DNA of 64,000 nt from Octopus vulgaris. Lineage: Eukaryota. The notes under the pieces are model-generated. The model was not told the origin of the DNA. It was given only the letters and a program-made list of their open reading frames with translations, and ran no database searches. Positions 5,025 through 64,000 of this stretch are shown here, piece by piece. Where the stretch lies: contig OX597821.1 in the NCBI GenBank assembly GCA_951406725.2, positions 96,720,001 to 96,784,000 of the forward strand, written 5' to 3'. Every line of letters starts with the position of its first letter. Position 1 is the first letter of the stretch. Made by a program: the position numbers and the translations under genes.

Positions 5025-5474
5025 TATTGCTTTTTTCTACCAGTAATTACAAATAGAACAGGTTTATTTGCCCCTCTTCAAGGCAGCGCTCCCAGCGGCC
5101 ACTGGAAGTAGTAAACACATTTGACTTCTGCTGACCCAAAGATTGCGAAGATTCTTTTGTTTTTATGGCTGACCTCCCCATCATCTGCCGAATCTATTTA
5201 TAGACCTGTAGAATATGATCTATTTCACCAAACTGCTGCCCAACTATTTCCTCTAACAATGGTAGTGGTGGTGATGGTGATAACGAAAAAAATTAAAATG
5301 ATAATAATATACTGCAGCTACTGATACTAAATACTACAAATACTACAATGATACAACTACTACTATTATGATAGCACAGGAATCTGAAGCCCAACTACCA
5401 CCCTTACCACTACCGCAAACACTGCAGCTACTACACAAAAAATTAATAATATCAGAGATATCAGTGATTATAGA

Positions 5475-5535
<61 letters not shown>

Positions 5536-5538
<3 letters not shown>

Positions 5539-7315
5539 TTCCAGGGAGACACGCTCTCTCCACTCCTTTTCTGCTTGGCACTGTCACCTCTATCTGATAT
5601 GCTAAATAGAACTGGATGCGGATATAAATGTTACGGCAAAACGATCAGCCACCTTTTATATATGGATGACCTAAAACTATACGCTGCAAATGACAAACAG
5701 CTGGAAACACTATTAAAGACAGTTCTTGGATTTACCAAAGAAATAGATATGAAATTTGGATTAGAAAAATGCGCCAAAGTAACCCTGAAAAGAGGAAAAC
5801 TAGTTAAGAGTAACAACATTACACTAGATAAAACCAATGAAATAAAAGAATTAGACCAAAGCCAAACTTACAAATACTTAGGAATCCATGAACTAGATAA
5901 GACACAACACACACAAATGAAAGAGAAAAAAAAAAAGAATATTATAGACGAGTTAGATCAATACTAAACACAGAGCTCAATGCTAAAAACGAGATAATAG
6001 GTATCAACACTTTAGCTGTCCCAGTTATAAGTTACAGCTACAATATCCTTAACTGGACACGAAATGAACTGACCAAAATAGATAGGAAAACAAGAAAAAT
6101 AATGACAGGATCTAGGATGCATCACCCAAAATCTGACATAGAAAGACTATATATACAACGTATAGAAGGTGGTAGAGGCCTTATACAGCTGGAAAACTAC
6201 TATAAAATAACCACCATAGGACTGCAAAGATATCTACTTCAGAAGGAAGGAAAACTGATCCAGATAGCGGCAAAACACGAGCAAAACAAAAAACTGTTCT
6301 CAGTATTTAAGGAAGCTGACAAATACAAACAAGAAATCATACCACCTAATAAACATGAAGAAGAAGAAGAAGATGAAGAAACAACAAAAGCTATAAAACA
6401 AATGAAATCCAAACTAAAAATAGAACAGCAACGAACCATGATAAAACGATGGCAAGAAAAGCCCCTTCATGGTAAATACTGGACTAAACTAAACGCAAAA
6501 GAAATAGACAAAGAAAAATTCCCAGCAATGGTTGAGAAGCTCAGGACTCAAAGCAGAAACAGAGGGATTTTTAATTGCAGCACAAGACCAAAGCCTCCCC
6601 ACCAGAAATTACCAAAAACATGTAATGAAAAGAAATATTACAAGTAACTGCAGAATATGTGGAGATGGACAAGAAACAATAAATCATATTATCTCTAGCT
6701 GCCCAGTCTTGGCTAAGAAGGAATATATTCACAGACATGACAGAGTTGGAACCTACATACATTGGAAGCTATGCCAACATTATGGAATAACAACAGAAAA
6801 AAGATGGTATAGGCACACACCAGAAAAGGTCACAGAAAACGAGAAAGCAACCATACTCTGGGATATGCCGATACACACAGATAGAGAAATTAAGGCCAAC
6901 AGACCAGATATAGTTGTCAGAGATCATGAAGAAAAAAAATGCTTTCTAATTGATGTATCAATACCGGCTGATGACAACGTGTCTCTAAAAGAAATGGAGA
7001 AACTCTCAAAATACAAAGACCTGGAAATAGAGGTAACTAGAATGTGGAATCTGAAAACAGAAACAATTCCTATCATAGTAGGTGCATTAGGCATGATAAA
7101 AAAATATTCAGACAAATACATAACAAAAACACCAGGACTTACAAACACATATAACATACAGAAAATTGCACTACTAGGCACTGCACACATCCTACGCAGA
7201 ACACTTTCCATACAATAACCATCAGAGCATCACAACAAATCACAGCACATACCCAAAGCACACAGAGCTGTGCTCGGTAGTGAGGTGAAAGCACGCTATA
7301 AAAATAAAACTACTG
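5536..7315 (+). mobile_element. 5'-truncated R4/Dong-type non-LTR retrotransposon (RT + CCHC + REL endonuclease) inserted in (TAA)n
   Basis: IFQGDTLSPLLF, YMDD, YKYLG, CRICGDGQETINHIISSC, RHD, RPD..IDVSIP, K..KY motifs across ORFs 5368-5967, 6102-6647 and 6532-7218; (TAA)n on both sides; two frameshifts. Confidence 0.92.
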
Positions 7316-7479
7316 AATAATAATAATAATAATGAAAGGAAACGGGTAGAGCCTCCTTATGGGCTGATTAATGATACATCTAGTGATGGTATCACAATAA
7401 AAACACTGGTAATTGCACAACCTGATAAATACTACCTCATATGAGTGACAATGAAACAACAAAATATTGTGAATAACGA

Positions 7480-13500: not shown

Positions 13501-13559
13501 ATAACTGACGAGATGTCGGAGCAGTTTTATGCCACGACATCCGAAACGCGGAGTCTTAT
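13501..13559 (+). ncRNA. Type I hammerhead ribozyme motif with GUC site
   Basis: AUAA-CUGACGA-GAUGUCG(loop)CGACAUC-C-GAAA-C(gcgga)G-UC-UUAU, ~60 nt downstream of a (TA)n tract. Confidence 0.72.
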
Positions 13560-15764: not shown

Positions 15765-15866
15765 ACCGTTGGCGATTTTTTTTCTTCTGTCTTCCCTTCT
15801 CTGGATCTTTCCTTCTCCTATGTTTCCGACGAAGAGCTCCGCTCGAAAGTGCTTTCTAGTTTGGAT

Positions 15867-15871
<5 letters not shown>
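15765..15871 (+). mobile_element. Internally deleted copy of the ~210-bp hammerhead unit
   Basis: gtttccgacgaagagctccgctcgaaa joined directly to the terminal tttggattaac-(TA)n. Confidence 0.7.
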
Positions 15872-18499: not shown

Positions 18500-21480
18500 A
18501 CATGGCGTCCCACTGTTCGATACACACATAGTCATCTACAACAGATGACTTCCTTGAAAAGTAAAACAAGTGACCTTACTTCCAACCAGACACGATCTAC
18601 GTGCAGTTACGCAACTAACTTTCAATACCATCATATTGGATGGGGGAAAAGCTGAAGAGGTCAGTCTCCTGAGTATGAAAGAAAGAAAAGGTTTTGGATA
18701 GAACTTTGGAACAGGTCAGTGAGTCATAACGAAAATACAGAGTTAACACAGCTGGAGAGTCAGTGTGCTAATGTGCTGAAACTAGAGCGACAGAATTGAT
18801 CTGAAACTATCAGATTGCATGAAAGGACCATTTGCATGCCTGCAGCAGAGACACGTAAGGTGTGAACGAACGATGTGTTTTAAAAATCCCATGACAGTTA
18901 AACTGGATTCGACCAACGACATGTTTGACTTATATGGAAGCTTACGCGTTCAATAAGTTCTGACCCACCAGTTGAGAAGCTGAAAAGAATTACAGCTCTG
19001 AATTAATTGTGGTTTCTGATTTACAGGTGTTTGAACCGTCAAGTGTGAAATGGAGCCTGAAAGGACGCACACCACGGGAGACTTTGATGAAATGAAAGTA
19101 ACTTATGGTGATGATGCCCCATCATATGACCTTGTAAAACGCTGGCATCGTGAATTCAAACATGGTCGGAACTCTGTGGAAACAGCTCCCAGATCTGGTC
19201 GCCCCTTCTGCCATTGATGAGGCATCTGAGTTGAGGCTGCCGTTTTGGAAGATCGACGTGCCAAATAGCCCATGAGGAAGATGTACCGGGTCTGTGGAAA
19301 CTATCAATGACCATTTTTGCAAAGAGACAGGTTGATTCCAGAAGCAAGAACGCGTCGAGTGCTCGAGGGTGAATTTGGAGACAAGAAGATGAGTCAAAAT
19401 TTTTCAAAAGACTGATTACACAGGATGAAACCTGGGTCCATCACGATGATCCAGAGACCAAAGCCCAGTCAATGCAGTGGAAGCACCGTGACTCACCCCC
19501 TCCAAAGAAGGCAAGGGTGCAGCCCTCCGCTGGCAAGGTCATGCTCACAGTCTTCTGGGACCAGGACGGAGTAGTAATGACGGATTTTCTGGCAAAGGGT
19601 ACCACAATTGCAGGAGCCTATTATGCTTCACTTTTGAGGAAATTAAGAGAAGTTATCAAAATCAAGAGGCGGGGCAAGATCAGCAAAGGCATCCTCCTCC
19701 TGCCGGACAACGCTCGCATGTCGCCAGATCAGACGCACAGGCGTATGGCTATGAACTCCTCCCCATCCCCATACTTTCCTGACCTTGCACCCTCTGATTT
19801 TCACCTCTTCCCAATCATGAAGTTGTTTTTGAAAGGAAAGCGTTTCCCAGATGATGCAGCCTTGATTTCTGAAGTCACGTTGAGGTTGGAGAACCAAGCT
19901 GGGTTCTTCTACAAAAACGGTCTCCAGAGCCGCATCAAACAATGGGAGAAATGCGTAACTCTGGGTGGTTCCTATGTAGAAAAAGACTAATAACTGTGCC
20001 AAGTTTCGTTGCTCTACTGCTATGGGAAGTGGGTCAAGGGCATTACTTATTGAACGCCCCTCGTATGACCAGTGTCTTGGTGGAAAAGTTATACCATCAT
20101 CTGGAAAGTGTTAATTTACTTCCAGCAGAACAGGTAGTGTGCAGAAGGTAAGGTAGAGCAACAGAAGTCCAACTGTATGCTGATAAAATTGTAATCAGAA
20201 ATTGCACCGCAAAATGTTGGGATTGGATGTGGCATGGTTCGTATTATAACAAAATCATATGACATGATGCCGCACAATTGGATAAATAAAACATATTTGA
20301 AATGGCAGAAAATATGATGACACTGGTCCTTAGTAACAGGAAGCCTACAGACTTGATTGAAGGAAATCAAAGACTTGAGAAGCTGAACATCAGACGTGGT
20401 ATATTCGAAGGTGATGTTTGCTCTTCATTAGTATATGTATTGGTCATGATACTACGAAAGGTCAAAATAGCTTACGATTTGGGAAAAGGCTATGATCAGA
20501 TAAATCATCTCCTATTCATAGATGATTTAAAGTTTTATGTGATAAACTAGAAGCAGCTGCGAAGTCTTGTACATACATACTGTTCGCATTTTCTCATATG
20601 ACGTACGACGAGAAATGGAAATTCCGGTTTTAAAAGTACATTATCTTGATAATGAAACGAAGGAGATTTGAAAGAAGCCAGAGAATTGGAATGTCAAATG
20701 AGCAAACTGTGAATTCGATTGAGAAAGGCCAACAGCATATATATTTGTGGCTACTGGAGGCGGTTGAAATAAAGCATGAAGAGATGAAGCAGAATGTAAG
20801 GAGGGAATATACAAGGAGAGTGAGGAATATATTGCAGTCAAGATTGAATTCAAGAAATGTTATTGAAGCAGCTAATTCAAGAGCTGTGCTATTTATCAGA
20901 TGTAGCGTTCGAATTGCGGATTAGACAGCAAGTGAAATGCAGAAACTAATGAGAAGTAGAGTGTTGTTCAATATATATATTGAGCTCACCACCTGAAATC
21001 TGATATTAACTGGTTGTGCTTTGAAGAGAGATCAAGGTGGAAGAAGCTTAATTTGTGTGGAAGAGTGTGAGATGATGAAACGAAGCAGCTTATTTGATCA
21101 TTTGCAAAACACAGAGTAATTAGAAAAGGCAATGAGTAAGAACATGTGGTCAAGATTGGAAAGGGTGAAAAGAATAGAAATGAAATTGAAAGAGAGCACG
21201 AGGAACAGATTGAAGATTAACTTTTTCATGGTCAGTTTTGGAAAGCTTCTGGTGTCAGTAAAATATAGAGCATGTGGAATTTGAGATGAAATAATGTCAC
21301 ACGTTGTTGCAAAGACATGGATACATGGTCAAGTTGTGAAGGTTTTAGTCTAGAAGTTTCGTGAGAAATATGGTTTTGAAGCAGGAAGTACGTGGTACAA
21401 TCATCGAGCAATTGAATCGGAAACATGCACTTGGCAAGAAATGGAAGCCAAATTGAAAGAAGAGAGTAAGGATAATGATA
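18500..21480 (+). pseudogene. Heavily decayed R4/Dong-like LINE interrupted by a mariner
   Basis: ..WKL|MTSVLVEKLYHHLE..LLPAEQ, RRGIFEGD, INHLLFIDDLK, EYTRRVRNILQSRLN motifs. Confidence 0.7.
18943..20065 (+). mobile_element. Mariner (DD34D) transposon, degenerate, with TIRs and TA target duplication
   Basis: TIR cgttcaataagt / acttattgaacgcccctcg-TA; transposase motifs ITQDETWVHH, PDNAR, PYFPDLAPSDFHLFP (ORF 19472-19990). Confidence 0.9.
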
Positions 21481-23194: not shown

Positions 23195-23284
<90 letters not shown>

Positions 23285-23287
<3 letters not shown>

Positions 23288-24736
23288 TAGCTTTATTTTT
23301 ATAGCGTGCTTTCACTTCACTACCGAGCGCAGCTCTGTATGCCTTGGGTATGTGCTGTGATTTGTTGTGATACTCTGATGGTTATTGTATGGAAAGTGTT
23401 CTGCGTAGGATGTGTGCAGTGCCTAGTAGTGCAATTTTCTGTATGTTATATGTGTTTGTAAGTCCTGGTGTTTTTGTTATGTATTTGTCTGAATATTTTT
23501 TTATCATGCCTAATGCACCTACTATGATAGGAATTGTTTCTGTTTTCAGATTCCACATTCTAGTTACCTCTATTTCCAGGTCTTTGTATTTTGAGAGTTT
23601 CTCCATTTCTTTTAGAGACACGTTGTCATCAGCCGGTATTGATACATCAATTAGAAAGCATTTTTTTCTTCATGATCTCTGACAACTATATCTGGTCTGT
23701 TGGCCTTAATTTCTCTATCTGTGTGTATCGGCATATCCCAGAGTATGGTTGCTTTCTCGTTTTCTGTGACCTTTTCTGGTGTGTGCCTATACCATCTTTT
23801 TTCTGTTGTTATTCCATACTGTTGGCATAGCTTCCAATGTATGTAGGTTCCAACTCTGTCATGTCTGTGAATATATTCCTTCTTAGCCAGGACTGGGCAG
23901 CTAGAGATAATATGATTTATTGTTTCTTGTCCATCTCCACATATTCTGCAGTTGCTTGTAATATTTCTTTTCATTACATGTTTTTGGTAATTTCTGGTGG
24001 GGAGGCTTTGGTCTTGTGCTGCAATTAAAAATCCCTCTGTTTCTGCTTTGAGTCCTGAGCTTCTCAACCATTGCTGGGATTTTTCTTTGTCTATTTCTTT
24101 TGCGTTTAGTTTAGTCCAGTATTTACCATGAAGGGGCTTTTCTTGCCATCGTTTTATCATGGTTCGTTGCTGTTCTATTTTTAGTTTGGATTTCATTTGT
24201 TTTATAACTTTTGTTGTTTCTTCATCTTCTTCTTCTTCTTCTTCATGTTTATTAGGTGGTATGATTTCTTGTTTGTATTTGTCAGCTTCCTTAAATACTG
24301 AGAACAGTTTTTTGTTTTGCTCGTGTTTTGCCGCTATCTGGATCAGTTTTCCTTCCTTCTGAAGTAGATATTTTTGCAGTCCTATGGTGGTTATTTTATA
24401 GTAGTTTTCCAGCTGTATAAGGCCTCTACCACCTTCTATACGTTGTATATATAGTCTTTCTATGTCAGATTTTGGGTGATGCATCCTAGATCCTGTCATT
24501 ATTTTTCTTGTTTTCCTATCTATTTTGGTCAGTTCATTTCGTGTCCAGTTAAGGATATTGTAGCTGTAACTTATAACTGGGACAGCTAAAGTGTTGATAC
24601 CTATTATCTTGTTTTTTAGCATTGAGATCTGTGTTTAGTATTGATCTAACTCGTCTATAATATTCTTTTTTTATTTTCTCTTTCATTTGTGTGTGTTGTG
24701 TCTTATCTAGTTCATGGATTCCTAAGTATTTGTAAG

Positions 24737-28061: not shown

Positions 28062-28065
<4 letters not shown>

Positions 28066-28270
28066 TAATCCAAACAAGAAAACAAAAACAAAAAAACAAC
28101 AACGCAAGGACGTGGAACAAATAAAGTATTATTGGACGCTCAGGAAAGAAGGGAAGAAGGGGGTTTGACGTTTCGAGCGGAGCTCTTCGTCGGAAACATA
28201 GGAGAAGGAAAGATCCCGAGAAGGGAAGACAGGGGAAAAAATCGCTAGTGATACAGACGAGGTCACATAC
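28062..28270 (-). mobile_element. Dispersed copy of the ~210-bp hammerhead unit
   Basis: Reverse complement of the 55557-55765 unit. HHR 28163-28197 GUUU-CCGACGA-A-GAGC(ucc)GCUC-GAAA-CG-UC-AAAC; adjacent to (TA)n. Confidence 0.78.
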
Positions 28271-53482: not shown

Positions 53483-55500
53483 TGTATTGTTTTATAAAAT
53501 AGCATTATCAAAGATATATCCACTGTCCTAAGAATGGCACATTATAAGGAATTAATCGTACAAGCCCAATGGATTTTGAAGCAAGAAATAAATCAGGAAT
53601 CAACCTTGATATAGCACTATTCGCAAAACTTACAAACGATTTAAAGCTTGAAGTTCAGTTGAGGACCCGCTGGTTGGAAAGGATAAACAATTACGTGAAC
53701 GCTTGCCTTTTCTGGACTTTCAACTCAAAATCTCATAAGGAAGTAGCATCCAAACCAAATTTACAAAAATACCATTTACTGATATCATCCGCTATGTTAT
53801 AGTCCTATTTCTGTTATGAAAATGGTGTATAGAAACAGACCATGCTAAAGGAACGTTTGACTTTCTGAGTGTATATGTGTGTGAATATGTTTATGTGTGC
53901 GTATATGCATGTACCATTTATCTTTCACTTGTTTCAGTCATTTAACTGCGGCCGTGCTGGGGCACCATCTTGCAGAGTTTTAGTCGAACAAATTGACCCA
54001 AGAGCTTATTTTTCTGCTCATACCAGGTACTTATCCTATCGGTTTCTTTTACCCCGACCGCTAAGTCGCTAAGTTACAGGGACGTAAACACACCAGCACC
54101 GGTTGTCAAGCGATGAGTGGGGTACAAATATACACACCTAAATGCACACATACATACACACGCATGCACACACACACACATACATGCACACACGTATACG
54201 CGACAGGCATATACCGTATTCACTCACAAGGCTTCAGTCGAACCGAAGCTATAGTAGAAGATACTTGCCCAAGGTGCCACGCACTAGGACTGCACCCGGA
54301 ACCATGTGATTGAGAAGCAAGCTTTCTACCACACAGTTACGCCTGTATGTATTCCGAGATTAAGTCTTCATAAGAACATGGCTAGCGCACTTAGAGTTGA
54401 GTAATCAAAGAGTTTGGTCCCTCGACCTATTTGGCTAAAAACGAGTCGAACAAAATATTGCTTCTTTGTTTCACACATTGTGCTAAATAAAAACATGTAC
54501 GTGCATGTCAGTATGTACATGTGTGTAAATGCACGTATACGTGTGTGTAGCTATGAATGTGTTTATTTGTGTTAGCGGTGGTTTTTGTTCAGTCGAATTA
54601 CCGTCCAAACATAGCAAATTTGAAAGTATTAACTCTAGGCAGAGTAAGCTAATCATAAGCTAGTCGCGCGTTCATTTTATTCAAATTGATAAAAATAATG
54701 AACTGATTTTGACATGCTGTTACATGTCCAAATACTTCCTTCGTTCATAAAAGATAACAATAAATGGTTTACACAACTGATATCGCCTAGAGTGATGCTG
54801 TATATTAACTTTCCAAGCGGCTGATGTTTACGGTCGATTGATAAAACAAAATCCTGCTTGGTGTTATGTAATCCCTCTATATTACATGTAAAATAAGATA
54901 TCTATATCTTTCTTTTCTCTTTTATCTTTTACTTGCTTCGATCATTGGAGTGCGGCCGTGCTGGGGCACCGTCTTGACAGCTTTAGACGAACATATCCAC
55001 CACAATACTACATCTATTACTTATTCTACTGGTGTCTTTTATCGAACCGCTAACTTTGGTGGACGTAAACATGCCAACACATGTTGGCAAGCGGTGCGTG
55101 ATAGGGACAAACGAACACACACACATGCACAAACACGCACACATATATATATACATATATACATACATAGATACACTGAGCTTCCATACAGTTTCCTTCT
55201 ACCTACTACACTCACCTGACATTGGTCAGCCCAGGGCTATACTAGCAGATACATGTTCAAGATGCTGCGCAGTGTATGGGTGTGCATATGTAACTATATA
55301 TGTATTAATGTATAGTTGTATATTTAACTATGTATTTTTAAATAAGCGAGTCTGCTTGCATTTATCTTGTTCAATGTATATACGGTCATTTATTTATAAA
55401 ATCTATACATGTTTAAGTGAGTATATATATGTGTGTGTACATATACATATATATGTATATACCTATCTATCTATGAATCTATCTATCTATATACATTGGA

Positions 55501-55554
<54 letters not shown>

Positions 55555-55556
55555 AT

Positions 55557-55760
55557 ACATGTGACCTCATGAGCACCGCTAGCAATTTTTTTTCCTCTAT
55601 CTTCCCTTCTCGGGATCTTTCCTTCTCCTTTGTTTCTGACGAAGAGCTCCGCTCGAAACGTTAAACCCTCCTTCTTCCCTTCTTTCCTGAGCGTCCAATA
55701 ATACTTTATTTGTTCCACGTCCTCGCGTTGCTGTGTTTTTTTGTGTTTTCTTGTTTGGAT

Positions 55761-55798
<38 letters not shown>

Positions 55799-56021
55799 TC
55801 TATCTATCTATATATATTCCAAAATGTAACTACATGAGGATTGTTGGCGATTTTTTCCTCCGTCTATCTTTTCTCTTGGACTTTCCCCTGTCCCTTGTTT
55901 CTGAAGAAGAGTTTTGCTCGAAACGTTGAACACCCTTTCTTTCCTTCCTGGAGCGTCTTTTAATACTTTCCATGTACCACGTCCTCGTGTCATTGTTTTC
56001 TCTTGTGTTTTTTTTTCTGGA

Positions 56022-56030
<9 letters not shown>
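55557..56030 (+). mobile_element. Two tandem ~210-bp hammerhead-containing units separated by (TA)n (retrozyme/solo-pLTR-like)
   Basis: HHR 55632-55666 GUUU-CUGACGA-A-GAGC(ucc)GCUC-GAAA-CG-UU-AAAC and HHR 55897-55931 GUUU-CUGAAGA-A-GAG(uuuug)CUC-GAAA-CG-UU-GAAC. Each unit ends tggattaa.t-(TA)n. Confidence 0.78.
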
Positions 56031-56085
<55 letters not shown>

Positions 56086-56102
56086 TTATATATATATATA
56101 TA

Positions 56103-56498
56103 TCTTTATATATAAAAGTGAGGTTGTGTGCTGTCTGTCTCCTACGATTTAGATTCCTAACTACTCCCACATTTTGCGGTGCAGTTTAACCAAAACCGGG
56201 TATCTTATAGTCGTGATTCATATCGAGCCCTTCTGGGTATTAGCGCGCGTCTACGATAAGTCTACGATTTTAAAAACAATTACCATCAATTTTTCCCATT
56301 TTTAATGCATTTTTGGCATATAGAAAGGAAGTAACTCTCTAAAAATTTATTATTAAATCTCAGAACGTAAAAAGCTACAGTAACACCCCCCCCCTTTGCG
56401 GTTAACCATATTGAGATAGCTATTATACTTTACATCTCTAAAAATGCTTACATAGTTATTTCCCTTACAAACCCGAGCAACGCCGGGCGATACTGCTA

Positions 56499-56499
<1 letters not shown>
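56103..56499 (+). mobile_element. Non-autonomous Helitron
   Basis: a|TCtttatatataaaag ... cccgagcaacgccggg cgatactgCTAG|t. Confidence 0.87.
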
Positions 56500-56529
<30 letters not shown>

Positions 56530-56535
<6 letters not shown>

Positions 56536-56895
56536 TTCAGTAAAAATTTAGATTCAGTTGAATATGGTACTTAAGTTAAAGGCACCAGAATTTGGTATAG
56601 TATCCATATAATTCAAAATGGGGTGATTATAATCAAAATAAGCAGCATTTAAATCATACCTCCGACGGGACTGATTTAAATGTTGCTTATTTTGATTATA
56701 ATCACCGCAGTACGATCGTTTCATGCGACTTCATTTAATTAAACAATCCAAGTATTACATCAGTTTTAAAATGTAGAGCAATCTTAAGCTGCATATGGAA
56801 TTTTTAGTTAAATTGAAAAGATTCATTTTTATACTTATTCCATTTACCAACATCACGAAGAGGCTAAGTAGATAGACAGAGAGACCAGTTTCATC
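56530..56895 (-). mobile_element. Diverged relative of the 12.6-13.1 kb element, with an internal hairpin and a mutated hammerhead
   Basis: Homologous to 12592-13150. Hairpin 56623-56706; HHR 56707-56792 with core CUUAAGA and perfect palindromic stem III ACGAUCGU. Confidence 0.7.
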
Positions 56896-57802
56896 AACAG
56901 AAACATGGTAGTAAATGATATTTATTCATGGATACACTTCTTATCATTGAACTTACTTTGTTATTTAGATTTACTATATATATGAATAAATAAATATATT
57001 CATCATAAGACGACAATATAGATTTTAAGTTAGATTGGTTCATACTGTCTGTATCCTTTCCTTTTGATAAGGGCAGGAGATTTTGTAACATTTGCAACTC
57101 TGAACTCTTCCATATTCTCTTCTCTAACACACTTATAGAGAAATCATACAAATGTAAACACTGGCAGAAACATACATTTTACTCATATAAATGATTTCGA
57201 TAGTCATTATAGTTTTGAACAATTAGTTTAACGTGCACTTCACTTCAACAGAGAAATCCTTTCCTAAGCCTTTGAACATTCTTTTAATCAACGTATCCCT
57301 CCCTCTCTATTTGTTCCCTATTTATTATTCCTTTAACCCTTCTCTTCCTACTATCTAACTTTGACGTCAATTCTACTAACGGTTTTTTTAAACACTTATT
57401 AACGTTTTGTTTATCATGTAGGCAGTCATCGTAATTATTATATTGTCTTGTTGTTGAGAGAGGGTCCCTTTCTTTCCTGATGAGAAGATTGCATCTTACA
57501 CCGTTTATTCCTTTGGAATAAAACCATGTTGTCTTCGAAACATATGTCGAAAGTAAAGGAATTTTATTAACATCTTCGTTCAGCTCCATTTATTTATTTA
57601 TTCATATATAACACACAAATTTCTGCACATGAACCCGGAGTTCTACCTTTGGATAGGTCGCTTCAACCGTGATTCTGGCGTGAATTTGCTACCCTGGTAT
57701 CGGTTCATCGAATTTTCCATGTTGACGGTAAACGTAGGATAATTCATTCACCCATCGAAATATATATATATATATATATATATTAATAAATATATATATA
57801 TA

Positions 57803-57835
<33 letters not shown>

Positions 57836-57882
57836 ATGTATGTATGTATGTATGTATGTATGTATGTATAAATACATGTAGA

Positions 57883-57925
<43 letters not shown>

Positions 57926-58096
57926 TTATATGCATGTGTTTATGTGTATTTATATGTGCGCATACGTGTGTATATAAGCAAGCGCATGCATATATATAGA
58001 CGCACGTTTGTGTGTATGTGTGTGAGTGTATCTATATTGTTTGTGTATGTTTGTGTTTTTATGTATTTATACTTATGTGTATATATGCACACACAT

Positions 58097-58128
<32 letters not shown>

Positions 58129-58260
58129 TAATAAAAAGAATTCCTACCTTGTCTGATTTTCACGTTTTATTTACAATCTTATAATGATATATTATAAGAT
58201 AATATATTATAATTGAATAAAATAAAATGAAATAGTAGAATGTTAAATATTCATTCTGAT

Positions 58261-58305
58261 TGAACTAGTACTTTCATGCATTGAATTCTGCAATCTTCGG
58301 GTTCA
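58261..58305 (-). ncRNA. Minimal type I hammerhead ribozyme in the PLE terminal repeat (U4C core variant)
   Basis: Minus strand UGAAC-CCGAAGA-U-UGCA(gaauucaa)UGCA-U-GAAA-GUAC-UA-GUUCA: stem I UGAAC/GUUCA, stem II UGCA/UGCA, palindromic stem III AGUACU. Confidence 0.72.
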
Positions 58306-58368
58306 TGTAGTAGTGTTGACAGTCATGCTTCACAATTTTTGACTGTAGCAAGATGAGTGATTCTGTGC

Positions 58369-58482
58369 TATAAATACAGCTGGGTAGGCTCCAGAGTGCT
58401 AGGTTTTGCAAACTGTATTCTGACCAATCAGTGTGTAGTATCACTCAATTACTTAAGCTGATTGGTTGGTTGAGCTGATTGG
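58369..58482 (-). promoter_or_regulatory. Putative pLTR promoter: three CCAAT boxes and a TATA-like box upstream of the hammerhead
   Basis: ATTGG at 58461 and 58478, CCAAT at 58424, TATTTATA (minus) at 58376-58369, ~65 nt upstream of the ribozyme in element orientation. Confidence 0.45.
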
Positions 58483-58799
58483 TTTAGGCATCACGCTTTG
58501 TTGGACAGGTCAAGAGTCCTGTATCTTGACCCTGGCCGAAGCAGCAATTGTTGGGTTATTTTTAGAAATGTTGTAAATATCCTTTGTCAGAGATTTTTAT
58601 ATTTTTATATTTCAATTGTCATCATCATCATTGTCAGCACCTTAATTATTGTTGCTAGTGGTGATGGTGGTGGCAATAGAACTTTTAACCCTAAATAAGA
58701 TAATTTTCCTGCTATCTTCGTCTTGATCACCTTTAGTATTGTTGTTGTTGTTAGTGGTCATGGTCGTAGCAGTGGAAGTAATACCTCTAAGTATTATTA

Positions 58800-61127
58800 T
58801 TATTGCTTATTTAGCTTGGGTTCGAATTTATCAATAAAATTCTTTTCTCTGATTTTCCTCTCGATTTCACTTGGGCTGTGTAATTTGTAGAATGGAAATA
58901 TTATATATATTTTCCGACCACATGTTGCTAGGTGGTTACTCAAAGGTATCTGACGGACCTCTGGGTCTCTAATCTGTTGCCGGTGTACACGTGAGCGTTC
59001 TAATAGTGCGTTTCCCGTCTGACCTACATATATTTCTTCACAATTTGGGCATTTGATGCAGTAAATTAAATTTCTGCTTTTGCAGTTCATATTCGCGTTT
59101 GTGAATATTTTCCCGGTTTTTGTGTTTATATATTGACCGGTATGTATGAATTGGCATGTGCCACATCGGCTATCATTGCATTTAGATACCGTGAATGTTT
59201 GGTCTTTGTTGCTGAGGTCAAATTTTGCCTTTGTTAGTAATGTTTTCAAGTTTTTAGGCTGTCTTTTACTAAGCACCATAGCTCGATCCTTGATTATGTC
59301 TTTTAATTCATTACTTTGGGCAATGATTGGTAGGTTTGCTTTGGCAATGTTGAAGATATTCTGGTGACATGGGTTGTGTGTCACTATGAATGGTATGACT
59401 TGTTCTTGTTTTCCTCTTCCTTGGGTTGTCCTAAGTTGTTGTATAGGTATTTTTATAGCCCGCTGTATGCCATTTTCTATAAGTAGAGATGGGTATTTTT
59501 GTTTGAGCAAAAATTCTCTTAGTTCTATTAGGCGTTTGTTCCTGATATTTGCATCTTCTACAATAGTACAAATTCTTCTGGCTAGGCAGTATGGGATGTT
59601 ACGTTTTGTATGTGGTGGATGGCACGACTTAAAATTTAGGTATTGATGTGTGTCTGTGTGTTTATAGTATATATCTGTGGTGATGGTGGTGTCTTTTTTA
59701 ATTACCATTATATCCAGGAATGGTAATTTGGTACTAATCATCTCCTTTGTAAATTTGAGAGATGGGTGTAGGTTGTTCAGGAGGATATTGAACTCTTCCA
59801 GAGTATTTAGAGATTCTGTCCAGATTATGAAACAGTCGTCTAGGTATCTCTTCCATGCCTTTTCAATATACTTTCTAAATCCAGTGCCATAGTTTACCTC
59901 CACCTCTTGGTAGAGTTGTTCTTCTAAGTATCCCATTACAGAGTTGGCGTAAACGGGAGCAAACCTCGTTCCCATCGCCGTGCCTCTAATTTGGATGTAA
60001 TTCTTTCCATTGAAGAAGAATGTGTTATTTTCTAGAATAAGTTTGACTGTGTCTAATATAAATGGCACTGTGAATCTGCTGGGAATCACTTCTCTATGTT
60101 TTTCTAACCAGTATTTAATCGCCTTTATTCCTAAATCGTGTGGAATATTGGTGTAGAGGCTTACCACATCAAAACTTAGTAAAACTGAATTTGTTTCTGT
60201 TGTTTTGGGAAGATGGGACAGGAAGTCGATGTCATCCCTGATGAAACTTGGTATGTAAGTACATAGTGGTTTCAAAACAATGTCAATAAAATTGCTTAGA
60301 CGGTGTGTAGGGCATGCTGGACCAGCTATAATAGGTCTAAGTTTTAGGTCTTTTGGATGTAATAATTTTATGTACTCACTTTCTTGTTCTTTTACTGCCT
60401 GTTGAATGTTCTTTGATTTGTGTATTTTTGGTAAGCCGTAGAAGTTGCTGGGTTTTGGTTCAAAATTGGTGATGTAGTCTTTTTCATTATCCGTAAGTGA
60501 GTTGTGGTGTGTTGAAATCAGGTTGTTGATCTTTTTCATGATGTGGTGGTCTATATTTGCGGGTATTTCACAATAGAAGGTTGTATCCTTCAGTTGGTCT
60601 TCAACCAAATCCTTATAGTATTCGGTATCCATAATAACAATTGCACCACCTTTATCTGCTTGTTTAATTATTATTGTTTGATCGTTTTGTATACGTTTAC
60701 ATGCAGACATCTCTGATTTGCTAATGTTTGGCCTAACATTGGTATTGCGTCTAAGGGGAAATTTAGACAGGATATCAATGTATTGGTCAAGGTAGTTATT
60801 TCTTCCTTTTGGTGGGGTGAAATTTGATTTATTCCTTACTAGGGATTCATCAATCTCATTACTTTTGTTAGCGAAGAATTCTACAAGTCGTAATTTTCGA
60901 CAGAATTTTTGGATATCCTCCTTTAATTCTTGGTGGTTGGCTGTTGGTGTAGGTGTGAATTTCAGTCCTTTTGACAGAAGTTGGATTTCATCATTGTCAA
61001 GATCTCTTTTTGATAAATTAATTATTTTAGGATCTATACGTTCAGTTGTTTGGGGTATGTTTCCTCTTGGATTTTTTCTTTCTCCGGTGTTTGTTGTCCT
61101 GACGTAAAAAAATGGATTTTTTTCTGG
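58800..61127 (-). CDS. PLE reverse transcriptase + GIY-YIG endonuclease (frame open 61127-58800; first ATG only at 60710)
   Basis: Motifs IINLS..KGLKFTPTP (read by hand upstream of the ATG), ADKG, YGLPKIHK, RPIIA, SFDVVSLYTNIP, GTAMG, RYLDD, LPFLD, Cys linker CNDSRCGTC, and GIY-YIG IYCIKCPNCEEIYVGQTG..R...H..RE..N. No internal stops. Confidence 0.93.
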   Translation of the reverse strand, partial: PEKNPFFYVRTTNTGERKNPRGNIPQTTERIDPKIINLSKRDLDNDEIQLLSKGLKFTPTPTANHQELKEDIQKFCRKLRLVEFFANKSNEIDESLVRNKSNFTPPKGRNNYLDQYIDILSKFPLRRNTNVRPNISKSEMSACKRIQNDQTIIIKQADKGGAIVIMDTEYYKDLVEDQLKDTTFYCEIPANIDHHIMKKINNLISTHHNSLTDNEKDYITNFEPKPSNFYGLPKIHKSKNIQQAVKEQESEYIKLLHPKDLKLRPIIAGPACPTHRLSNFIDIVLKPLCTYIPSFIRDDIDFLSHLPKTTETNSVLLSFDVVSLYTNIPHDLGIKAIKYWLEKHREVIPSRFTVPFILDTVKLILENNTFFFNGKNYIQIRGTAMGTRFAPVYANSVMGYLEEQLYQEVEVNYGTGFRKYIEKAWKRYLDDCFIIWTESLNTLEEFNILLNNLHPSLKFTKEMISTKLPFLDIMVIKKDTTITTDIYYKHTDTHQYLNFKSCHPPHTKRNIPYCLARRICTIVEDANIRNKRLIELREFLLKQKYPSLLIENGIQRAIKIPIQQLRTTQGRGKQEQVIPFIVTHNPCHQNIFNIAKANLPIIAQSNELKDIIKDRAMVLSKRQPKNLKTLLTKAKFDLSNKDQTFTVSKCNDSRCGTCQFIHTGQYINTKTGKIFTNANMNCKSRNLIYCIKCPNCEEIYVGQTGNALLERSRVHRQQIRDPEVRQIPLSNHLATCGRKIYIIFPFYKLHSPSEIERKIREKNFIDKFEPKLNKQ

Positions 61128-62326
61128 TTATGATTTATATTCCTGTTGATGTTTGCTTGATGAATTTTGCGTTTTGGTTGTGGTACTTTACTTGGTTTCG
61201 TTATGTTTTCTGTCTTGTTTTTGGTATTATGTATGCTACTTTTCAATTTCTTGTTAGCATTGTTTTTAACCACCTGGAGAAATGATCTGGGTTTACTTCT
61301 AGATCTAGATCGGTTTTTTGTCCAGTTTCTTGTGGGTAATCTCTGTTGAGGTCTTGAAAATGATCTCCTGTTATTTCTACTGCTAATGGTCTGTTCAAAA
61401 CAATATCTATTTTGTTTGTGCTTTTTGTTCATGTTGTGTGCATTAGGGTGTTTGCATACAAAATGGGAAGAGTTCTTACCGTAGTTCGTCTTCGATTCGT
61501 GGTGAAACGGGTATTCATGTTGCCACGTGTTCTGGTGTATGTTGCGTTGGTGAGGTTGTCCACTTTTAATGCTATTTCTCGGAGTTCTGGTGTCTTTACC
61601 GTAATTTGTAGCATATTTGTCGAGAAATAATTGTTTCCGCTGCCAAAACTTTCTTGATCTGCTTTCTTCTTTTGAGATATCTCTGATCCATAGTTCTCGC
61701 ATTTTTTCTGCTATATTGCCGGTCGTTAGTTTGGATATTTCATCTCTGATTTGATCATCGATAGCTTCGTATTTGGCTTTGTAGCGGGATTGTTTAGACA
61801 GGGTAATGGAGATGTCGGTCCTGAATTTTATCAAACTAAGGTCCCATCGAAGTTTAGTTTCTTCCTCTGGTTCTCCTGCAATTTCTTTAATTAGGTACTT
61901 CCGAGGAAGTATGGGTGCCGCTAAAGATATCCATTTCGAATGTATTTCAGCATATTTTTCGCATTTATATGCCTTCCAGAAGTTTTGTTTTCTTATGTTA
62001 AGGAGTTTTTTCCATGTCTTCTGTATCTCTTCTCTTTTTCGGTGTGCCTCTTTTTCCAGATTTCTTTCGTTTATTTCTGACATCCAAGGAGGTTGTGGTA
62101 GGCTTTCTCTTGTAGATTTTATAATTGTTGGTATCATTTCAGCTAAATTCTTAATTTCAGAGTTTATGTGTTCATTTCCAAGTTTTCCGTCTGTAGACTG
62201 TTTTTCTATTTCCTTTAAAATAGAGGATTGTGTGTCAATCATCGTGATGAGTGTTGATAATTTCGATGAAATTTCCATTAGAATTCTTTCGGATTCTGTT
62301 AATTTTGTTTGTTGCTTTCCAGACAT
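61034..62326 (-). CDS. Upstream ORF1 of the PLE (430 aa from ATG 62326): helical/coiled-coil-like N half, basic K/R/N/S-rich C half
   Basis: Long uninterrupted ORF inside the element repeats. The track start at 62419 is a TTG; the first ATG gives MSGKQQ. It overlaps the RT frame by ~94 nt. Confidence 0.75.
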   Translation of the reverse strand: MSGKQQTKLTESERILMEISSKLSTLITMIDTQSSILKEIEKQSTDGKLGNEHINSEIKNLAEMIPTIIKSTRESLPQPPWMSEINERNLEKEAHRKREEIQKTWKKLLNIRKQNFWKAYKCEKYAEIHSKWISLAAPILPRKYLIKEIAGEPEEETKLRWDLSLIKFRTDISITLSKQSRYKAKYEAIDDQIRDEISKLTTGNIAEKMRELWIRDISKEESRSRKFWQRKQLFLDKYATNYGKDTRTPRNSIKSGQPHQRNIHQNTWQHEYPFHHESKTNYGKNSSHFVCKHPNAHNMNKKHKQNRYCFEQTISSRNNRRSFSRPQQRLPTRNWTKNRSRSRSKPRSFLQVVKNNANKKLKSSIHNTKNKTENITKPSKVPQPKRKIHQANINRNINHNQKKIHFFTSGQQTPEKEKIQEETYPKQLNV

Positions 62327-62951
62327 GTTGGCATATACACAATAGGAATATAGATATATATATATATATGGGTGTGTGTGATTGTGTATAGAAGAATATA
62401 TTAATAAAAAGAATTCCAACCTTGTCTGATTTTCACGTTTTATTTACAATCTTATAATGATATATTATAAGATAATGTATATATATATACATATATATAC
62501 ATATATATATATATTTCTTTACTACCCACAAGGGGCTAAATATACATGCATATATATATACATGCATGTTTATTTGTTTGTGTGTATGGCTAATATGTCT
62601 CCATGCGGTCTATATGTATATTAATGGGTATAAGAGCATACAGCTGTGTGAGTGCCCTTGTGTATGTCAATGATTATGTTCATGTGCTTCTATGTAGAAG
62701 TATTGTTTTGATTTCACTACTGCTCATTGGCATAGAAAGTATTTCGAGGAGTGGTCAGAAAATGTAATTAAAATTAAGATACATCAGTTAGTATGTGTGG
62801 TCTTTGACCTTTGAAATCTATTTGAAAATTACTGTTGCTTAGTCCTATCTCTTGGCTTAATCTTCATATCTTCAGCTGTCTGTTTCCTTTAAAATAATTT
62901 CTAATATATTTTATGAATTTTTATATACTTTTCAAAAACTTTTTCTTTATA

Positions 62952-63347
62952 TCTTTATATATAAAAGAGAAGTTGTGTGTCTGTCTCCTACGATTTAGAT
63001 TCCTAACTACTCCCACATTTTGCGGTACAGTTTAACCAAAACCGGGTATCTTATAGTCGTGATTCATATCGAGCCCTTCTGGGTATTAGCGCGCGTCTAC
63101 GATGAGTCTACGATTTTAAAAACATTTACCATCATTTTTTTCCATTTTAATGCATTTTTTCGCTATTATACAAGGGAAGTAACTCTCTAAAAATGTCTAC
63201 GATGAGTCAACGATTTAAAAAAAAATTACCATAATTTTTTTTCCATTTTTAATGCATTTTTTGGCTATTTTTTGGCTATAACTCTCTAAAAATGCTTATA
63301 TAGTTATTTCCCTTACAAACCCGAGCAACGCCGGGCGATACTGCTAG
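62952..63347 (+). mobile_element. Non-autonomous Helitron
   Basis: Same termini and hairpin; internal ~100-bp duplicated unit. Confidence 0.87.
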
Positions 63348-64000
63348 TTTACTATACCTTACTTTACTTCCTCTCTTTATCTCTTCCTGCATTTTGCTCA
63401 CCTTAAGAGTTTTTCCAGCGCGCTAACGGTCCTGTACCTTAATTGATATGAAACAAAATATCTTTATTTTTATTGACCATACCAAACTACTTTTATGTGG
63501 TCTCAGGCTTACATACATTCTAGATATAAAGAGAAAATTTTGTATGTGCACTTACAATTCAATCATTAGTGTGACCATAATGTTCTGATGATATTATGAG
63601 CTAGTTTTCTTTATCTGAATTGATTTGTGGATATGCAATTGTATTGTATAATGCGCAGCATGCCTATTAGCGCAGACACGTAAGCATAATTTTTTATGCA
63701 CAAAATATATTATATGAAAAGGGCTACGAAACGGCCGTGACCTTAAGGATGACAAGTGACTAAATCAATATACTCATCACTCATAACGCCTTATTAAGGT
63801 TTATGTATATATATATAATACACTAATACACACACACAAACACATACGTATGTATGTCTGTACGTATATACATATTGTTGTTGTTGGCATCCTTTTGTCT
63901 CGGGAGAAAATGGAGTTCCGCATAAACTGATCCAGTCTGGTTTTACATTTCATGTCCTCTCCAGTTTTGCGCAGGCCTTGGAAAGGTGTAAGAAAATCCT

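Follow-up and report, generated by a model that had tools for sequence, protein, structure and literature searches.

Two unlike minimal-hammerhead units in one Octopus vulgaris microsatellite, probably separate insertions of a Penelope-type element

Two short repeats on the same strand, each carrying a minimal type I hammerhead motif, lie next to each other in a 64-kb window of Octopus vulgaris DNA (the window being the whole stretch that was analysed). The two units are best explained as separate insertions of a non-autonomous Penelope-type retroelement into one microsatellite, with the pair forming no circular-RNA cassette, a reading to which we give a probability of about 0.6. The window's animal DNA is AT-rich, with a high density of microsatellites and mobile elements.

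Units, flanks, and hammerhead motifs

The pair, its flanks, and the further copies of the family in the window are located as follows.

55559..55764, + strand: unit 1, a pyrimidine-rich (70% C+T) repeat of about 205 nucleotides, common subfamily (sequence comparison)
55765..55794, + strand: tail of unit 1, (TA)15
55824..56026, + strand: unit 2, a more diverged copy of a rarer subfamily (sequence comparison, contig depth)
56027..56114, + strand: tail of unit 2, (TA)n, which merges with the beginning of a Helitron-like repeat
55632..55666, + strand: minimal type I hammerhead of unit 1 (anatomy and strict descriptor)
55897..55931, + strand: minimal type I hammerhead of unit 2, predicted cut after 55927 (anatomy and strict descriptor)
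55472..55557, + strand: left flank of unit 1, possibly the left-hand copy of a target-site duplication (exact matches to the right flank)
55793..55814, + strand: right flank of unit 1, a GA(ATCT)3 block after its tail and before unit 2, possibly the right-hand copy of this duplication
28062..28268, - strand: solo full-length copy with a CCGACGA core, GUC triplet, and (TA)27 tail (sequence comparison)
15765..15870, + strand: solo 5’-truncated copy with an internal deletion after GAAA and a (TA)29 tail (sequence comparison)

The element consists of about 100 nucleotides of pyrimidine-rich sequence on either side of the cut site. Three of the four window copies, from two subfamilies about 25% apart, share the 5’ start ATGT(G/A)AC, and all four end in GGATTAA(C/T) followed by 15 to 29 TA units.

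Both units contain, in order, GUUU, CUGANGA, A, a 4-bp stem II, GAA, ACGU, U, and (A/G)AAC. The hammerhead of unit 1 is composed of helix I (55632-35 paired with 55663-66), the core CUGACGA (55636-42), an extra A at 55643, stem II (55644-54), GAA, and ACGU (55658-61), with the predicted cut after U 55662. Unit 2 has the core CUGAAGA at 55901 and the extra A at 55908. Stem II in this family is 4 bp with a 3-nucleotide loop, helix I is 4 bp, and there is no loop III. An earlier note on this DNA had described two diverged same-strand units with intact CUGANGA/GAAA cores and ACGU, and these were found at 55636 and 55901 with predicted cuts at the positions it had given, 265 nucleotides apart. Its proposal of a double hammerhead formed through the ACGU palindromes fits a minimal type I hammerhead, which could act only as such a dimer, in agreement with PMC4209133.

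A strict descriptor of the minimal hammerhead finds three sites in the 64 kb (55636+, 55901+, and 28193-), all belonging to this family, and none in 200 block shuffles. The marks given for minimal hammerheads of Penelope-like elements (PLEs) in PMC4209133 are a short helix I, an extra base after A9, a G10.1-C11.1 pair, and a palindromic 15.2-16.2. Both units have the core in type I order with U16.1-H17, the extra nucleotide between 9 and 10.1, G10.1-C11.1, and the palindrome (ACGU). No Rfam hammerhead family reaches its gathering score anywhere in the window, and the 60 Rfam matches up to E 10 in 55400-58500 include no hammerhead, all being microsatellite look-alikes. A degenerate hammerhead pattern had no match in metagenome contigs and none in viral contigs.

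The two ribozymes are identical in 30 of 35 columns (86%) and the flanks in 123 of 164 (75%), so the pattern that the earlier note had described, stems kept while flanks diverge, is present, but the difference is not significant (Fisher p = 0.12). Variation within the family was read from three contig sets, X7, X17, and X18, which are RNA only by guess and from which no transcription is claimed. Position 55928 of unit 2 is a wobble beside the cut site in helix I. Relatives read A there in 97-100% of contig depth in the three sets, and GAAC does not hold as a stem I variant shared by the family. Position 55912 is a wobble in stem II of unit 2, and C is found there in 99% (X7), 79% (X17), and 32% (X18) of depth. 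The U4C core accounts for 60%, 71%, and 86% of depth on unit 1 across the three contig runs. This change lowers activity considerably in vitro, yet the remaining activity can suffice in vivo (PMC3088659). The GUU cleavage triplet is permitted, with GUC and GUA being the fastest (PMC3138052).

One further hammerhead-like motif, with a long stem II (CUGACGA ... GAAAC), is present at 13505-13546 (+), about 65 nucleotides after a (TA)25 array. It is single-copy in the window, fails the strict descriptor, and is unrelated to the units. It is likely the remnant of another PLE family.

Evidence for two insertions

The units do not stand head to tail. They are separated by (TA)15 and about 30 nucleotides of ATCT/TA microsatellite, and the tandem arrangement claimed for them is not called by Tandem Repeats Finder. 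Four runs of this program called only microsatellites, and no period of about 265 nucleotides came up under three of three settings, including those of a retrozyme preprint (bioRxiv 10.64898/2026.07.22.740005), whose tandem step is trf 2 7 7 80 10 50 1000 with families at 90%.

Identity between unit 1 and the solo copy 27 kb away is 90-92% (188 of 204 columns), against 74-77% between the two units (153 of 199 columns). Because unit 1 is closer to the distant copy than to its neighbour, the pair is not one template copied twice. Neighbours produced by rolling-circle copying or by local duplication should resemble each other, and the unlike pair therefore favours two insertions. By sequence comparison the units belong to different subfamilies.

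The flanks of unit 1 also point to an insertion of its own. Exact matches of 22 nucleotides (55472-93) and 17 nucleotides (55541-57) join the left flank to the right flank. The 17-nucleotide stretch that abuts unit 1 on the left is found again immediately behind its TA tail, and the 22-nucleotide match lies 24 nucleotides further upstream. The left flank contains GA(ATCT)3 at 55475 and GA(ATCT)13 at 55499, the latter abutting unit 1, and the three occurrences of GA(ATCT)2+ in the window all fall within this locus. When the pair is taken as one block, its flanks share only TA runs of 8 nucleotides. This duplicated flank suggests a target-site duplication of unit 1, although its low complexity and the expansion of the left ATCT copy (13 units against 3) speak against the duplication. 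No target duplication of at least 7 nucleotides was found at either solo copy. The chance of two of four copies sharing one TA array is 0.14 (41 merged arrays in the window, equal weights), so the shared array is in itself unremarkable.

The sequence features are consistent with the following history. A Penelope-like RT/GIY-YIG protein of a (TA)n-targeting clade would nick TA-rich DNA, and uncleaved element RNA would be reverse transcribed from a fixed 3’ start, leaving solo copies with TA tails. Unit 2 would have been inserted first and then have decayed. Unit 1 would have followed about 30 nucleotides upstream of unit 2, duplicating the ATCT block. Unlike copies may stack through repeated use of one microsatellite or through homing beside an older copy. 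PLEs are reported to insert beside earlier copies (PMC6765202), and a preference for (TA)n is described for the Neptune, Naiad, and Hydra types (PMC8557442). The ribozyme would have come down from a parent PLE's terminal repeat and would have weak activity at best, or would depend on protein. PLE hammerheads can be helped by protein: that of the Anolis PLE cleaved only with the PLE protein and was dispensable for insertion in vitro, and the main template was unprocessed RNA (PMC11167929).

Two other repeats lie beside the pair. An old SINE-like repeat at 54916-55285 (+) has at least five further diverged copies in the window (66-75%), and resembles a common octopus repeat. A repeat of about 420 nucleotides with a 3’ hairpin and a CTAG end, putatively Helitron-like by its end features, is present in three copies that are about 82% identical. 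One lies in the TA tail of unit 2 and one beside the PLE described below.

56085-56500, + strand: Helitron-like repeat
62948-63351, + strand: Helitron-like repeat
47974-47573, - strand: Helitron-like repeat

Two truncated non-LTR retrotransposon copies with a zf-RVT domain (5308-7333, +, and 23267-24634, -) are 99% identical and flanked by ATT/AAT microsatellites, and their family was recently active. A Mariner-type transposase fragment is located at 19373-19990 (+; Pfam Transposase_1, E 7e-24).

Family size and the nearby Penelope-like element

The earlier note had placed further copies at 28 kb (-) and 15.8 kb (+). Both are real, but both carry the U4C core CCGACGA in place of CUGANGA, and the 15.8-kb copy has no cut site, about 100 nucleotides being missing straight after GAAA. 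This deletion (15848-15849) begins exactly after GAAA, 4 nucleotides before the predicted cut site, and the sequence resumes about 23 nucleotides from the 3’ end.

The family is large and varied, with thousands of distinct short contigs in X7 and hundreds in X17 and X18. Contigs matching it at 80% or more number 4076 of 6.6 million in X7, 320 in X17, and 222 in X18. The alignment covered 4 of 24 sequencing runs, none of them under labels B, C, or D, and no spread across species is claimed from it; 20 of the 24 contain part of the stretch and one contains half or more, with no run listed as RNA among them. In each of the three contig runs, summed contig depth, which is not copy number, has a peak on unit 1 that exceeds the one on unit 2 by a factor of about 60 to 1000. 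Over 21 high-share rows of the 40 listed, unit 1 departs from the majority letter in X7 at 7 of 156 positions, and unit 2 does so at 13 of 141. In the raw-read DNA run X21, two reads aligned of 12.9 million records, far below the expectation for a high-copy family; filtering, or a different organism under the same label, may be the cause. A literature search found no paper on short-repeat hammerheads in cephalopods, and the family may already be deposited in a curated repeat library under another name.

The units may alternatively be the plain 3’ ends of a longer autonomous PLE family, that is, 5’-shortened pLTR remnants and no short element of their own. This is unlikely, though several observations are in keeping with it. 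Minimal hammerheads are mostly dispersed singles thought to be truncated PLEs (PMC4209133). One window copy is 5’-truncated, and in one X18 contig a TA-rich flank leads straight into the repeat at 55631. Contig depth also declines in the 5’ direction. However, depth falls at the 3’ end as well, so the slope is possibly an edge effect. The 5’ start shared by three of the four window copies, from two subfamilies, also argues against 5’-shortening, as do the loose contig ends in X17 and X18 that reach this start.

An apparently complete PLE lies near the pair.

58125..62485, - strand: apparently intact Penelope-like element, 2 kb from the pair (frames, Pfam, terminal repeats)

This element has a 775-aa frame with RT and GIY-YIG (61127-58800), overlapped by an upstream 469-aa frame that has no Pfam match. 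An 88-nucleotide, near-identical terminal repeat is present at both ends, and both ends are flanked by TA. The linker has CX4CXXC at residue 650, as in Neptune and Nematis (PMC8557442), and fits CX2-5CxxC. A hammerhead-like motif at 58305-58261 (-) contains a 5-bp helix I, a CCGAAGA core, and the palindrome AGUACU, and fails the strict descriptor because of a mismatch at the base of stem II. It lies 135 nucleotides from the TA end, against 98-105 nucleotides in the units. The best database relatives of the protein are 65% identical, and those with a named source are mainly from bivalve molluscs, or from assemblies of symbionts of these animals. Matches P0007, P0009, P0065, and P0094 are filed under bacterial symbiont assemblies of bivalves, and most likely represent host contamination of those assemblies.

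This PLE was considered as the parent of the units and rejected, since the similarity of its termini to theirs is not above that of shuffles (p 0.16-0.78). It illustrates the kind of machinery present here, and a partnership with the units is only putative. None of the four window copies of the unit has an RT frame beside it. Relatives of the PLE with flanks for a comparison of termini are one short contig (84 nucleotides beyond the match) and one distant 29% match. Three short motifs of the units were not found in the PLE supplement of PMC8557442, in which line breaks could hide a match. In the Octopus vulgaris assembly, 190 PLE families together account for 6.83% (PMC13282606).

Circle formation and comparison with known systems

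The earlier note had proposed a retrozyme, in which a read-through transcript folds into a double hammerhead, is cut at 55662 and 55927, and is closed by a host ligase into a 265-nucleotide circle. We regard this as improbable. Both cores are intact with U4, unlike the 60-86% of depth on unit 1 that carries U4C, and 265 nucleotides falls within the 170-400-nucleotide range of animal retrozymes (PMC7229834). The predicted fold of the circle has an energy of −40.7 kcal/mol (z = −3.0 against 60 shuffles). However, this stability is due to the TA/ATCT spacer and vanishes when the spacer is held open: the circle with its spacer unpaired gives −28.0 kcal/mol with 41% of nucleotides paired, the shuffle mean being −28.7. 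Circles of the single units have z values of −0.9 and −0.4. The longest ATG frame in the putative circle is 31 aa, leaving it without coding capacity, and no Pol III A/B box was found in the four window copies with a simple pattern.

The double hammerhead requires three long-range helices of 4 bp each. These are helix I between the 5’ side of unit 1 and the 3’ side of unit 2, ACGU with ACGU, and helix I between the 3’ side of unit 1 and the 5’ side of unit 2, with duplex energies of +0.2, −1.7, and +0.6 kcal/mol, respectively. Forcing the double-hammerhead fold costs 14.4-19.4 kcal/mol over the free ensemble in three transcript windows, and forcing a single active core costs 6.5-12.6 kcal/mol. 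Both ranges are uncalibrated, as no known active dimer was folded and the tertiary contacts of the core, Mg2+, and proteins lie outside the model. These values predict that the active double fold would form very seldom. The pairing probability of ACGU with ACGU reaches 0.148 in the transcript 55600-55960, which would favour the circle, and is 0.014 and 0.001 in the other two. Of the 0.148, however, 0.117 has A14 paired to U17 in an inactive form. Because U is present at both cut sites, the palindrome extends to AACGUU and A14 can pair with U17, although the base at the cut site has to be left unpaired (PMC3138052).

In the axolotl, dimers are much more efficient at cleavage than monomers (PMC7229834), which favours the circle. 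Other published results are less encouraging, a minimal Schistosoma PLE dimer having cleaved weakly in vitro (PMC4209133) and one of nine Xenopus dimers having cleaved (bioRxiv 10.64898/2026.07.22.740005). Two contig joints are listed, neither of them from 55927 to 55663, and contigs cannot show absence. The one go-back joint, from 55943 to 55686, comes from a single contig and is located beyond the cut site; an intermediate subfamily is the better explanation for it. The spacer has zero contig coverage and is masked as repeat, so that neither the coverage nor the joints count against a circle or in favour of transcription. With the units in different subfamilies, a flank duplication at unit 1, a failed tandem step, and a predicted active fold that is very rare, the proposed release of a 265-nucleotide circle is not supported and is improbable. 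Solo pLTR-type debris, which the earlier note had named as the case against its proposal, describes the evidence better than a retrozyme.

A more speculative possibility, which we think very doubtful, is an abundant SINE-like hammerhead family with a circular RNA intermediate that includes a (UA)n tract, in which unlike neighbours, chaperoned by a PLE protein, release chimeric circles. The tract would pair with a nicked (TA)n target and prime reverse transcription, which would end after one round. Such priming would explain the fixed ends, the intact central ribozyme, and the TA on both sides, and chimeric circles joined at the cut site would seed new mosaic subfamilies. Least probable of all is a scenario in which one copy, together with its ATCT leader, was duplicated in place long ago and the first copy was then overwritten by the common subfamily through gene conversion or homing; a GA(ATCT)n leader precedes both units and nothing else in the window, but two events are needed, and the differences between the units are even in both halves (52/70 and 71/94 columns identical), leaving no unconverted part.

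The family was compared with known systems. Judged by its sequence, the family works like a derivative of a PLE terminal repeat and bears the marks of PLE minimal hammerheads. In addition to those listed above, it shares with the latter the absence of loop III, the 4-bp helix I, the mostly dispersed single copies, and several subfamilies per genome (PMC4209133). It differs in that stem II is 7-8 bp in the Schistosoma families, that many relatives here carry U4C, and that the four window copies lack an RT frame. With the (TA)n-targeting Neptune, Naiad, and Hydra elements it shares a 3’ end abutting (TA)n, a sense hammerhead near that end, and target duplications that are hard to see (PMC8557442). 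The same source lists Octopus Naiad and Hydra families with (TA)n preference. The hammerhead of Hydra-1_Obim differs in its stems and has a loop III, and no sequence link from the units to a named family was found.

Like metazoan non-LTR retrozymes (PMC7229834; bioRxiv 10.64898/2026.07.22.740005), the units are non-coding, 200-265 nucleotides long, low in GC, and equipped with a type I hammerhead, with same-strand neighbours and a coexisting PLE. The validated circle-makers in these sources combine a canonical or near-canonical hammerhead with arrays of similar units and with circles that are strongly self-paired. The pair has a minimal ribozyme, neighbours that are 74-77% identical, a microsatellite spacer, and a weak fold outside that spacer. 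The absence of coding capacity and the presence of a PLE in the same genome agree with non-LTR retrozymes. Neither a tandem of like units, each with a complete hammerhead, nor a canonical type I hammerhead (helix I of about 6 bp, looped helix III) was found, and the family thus lacks two of the features by which the non-LTR retrozymes validated in PMC7229834 are defined. The 2026 preprint derives retrozymes from pLTRs and counts solo "monomer" copies (bioRxiv 10.64898/2026.07.22.740005). If retrozymes are understood in this looser way, as PLE derivatives that are non-autonomous and leave many solo copies, the family is a near relative of them.

Two further systems were considered. The Schistosoma SINE-like hammerhead repeats are likewise short, dispersed as well as tandem, non-autonomous, and hammerhead-bearing, but they have a Pol III promoter and active ribozymes (PMC6765202), whereas no A/B box pattern is seen here. 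The plant-type LTR retrozyme has type III hammerheads, LTRs of about 350 bp, a PBS, a PPT, and a 4-bp TSD; the units have the type I order and no LTR pair.

If the release of a circle were true after all, it would bear on the role of minimal hammerheads in PLE biology, which is an open question (PMC7761336), and the heterologous natural dimer would be a neat test substrate. On the best explanation, the units probably add a further family, here in a mollusc, to the thousands of minimal PLE hammerheads known from animal genomes, and they are a useful reminder that a retrozyme takes more than two hammerheads side by side.
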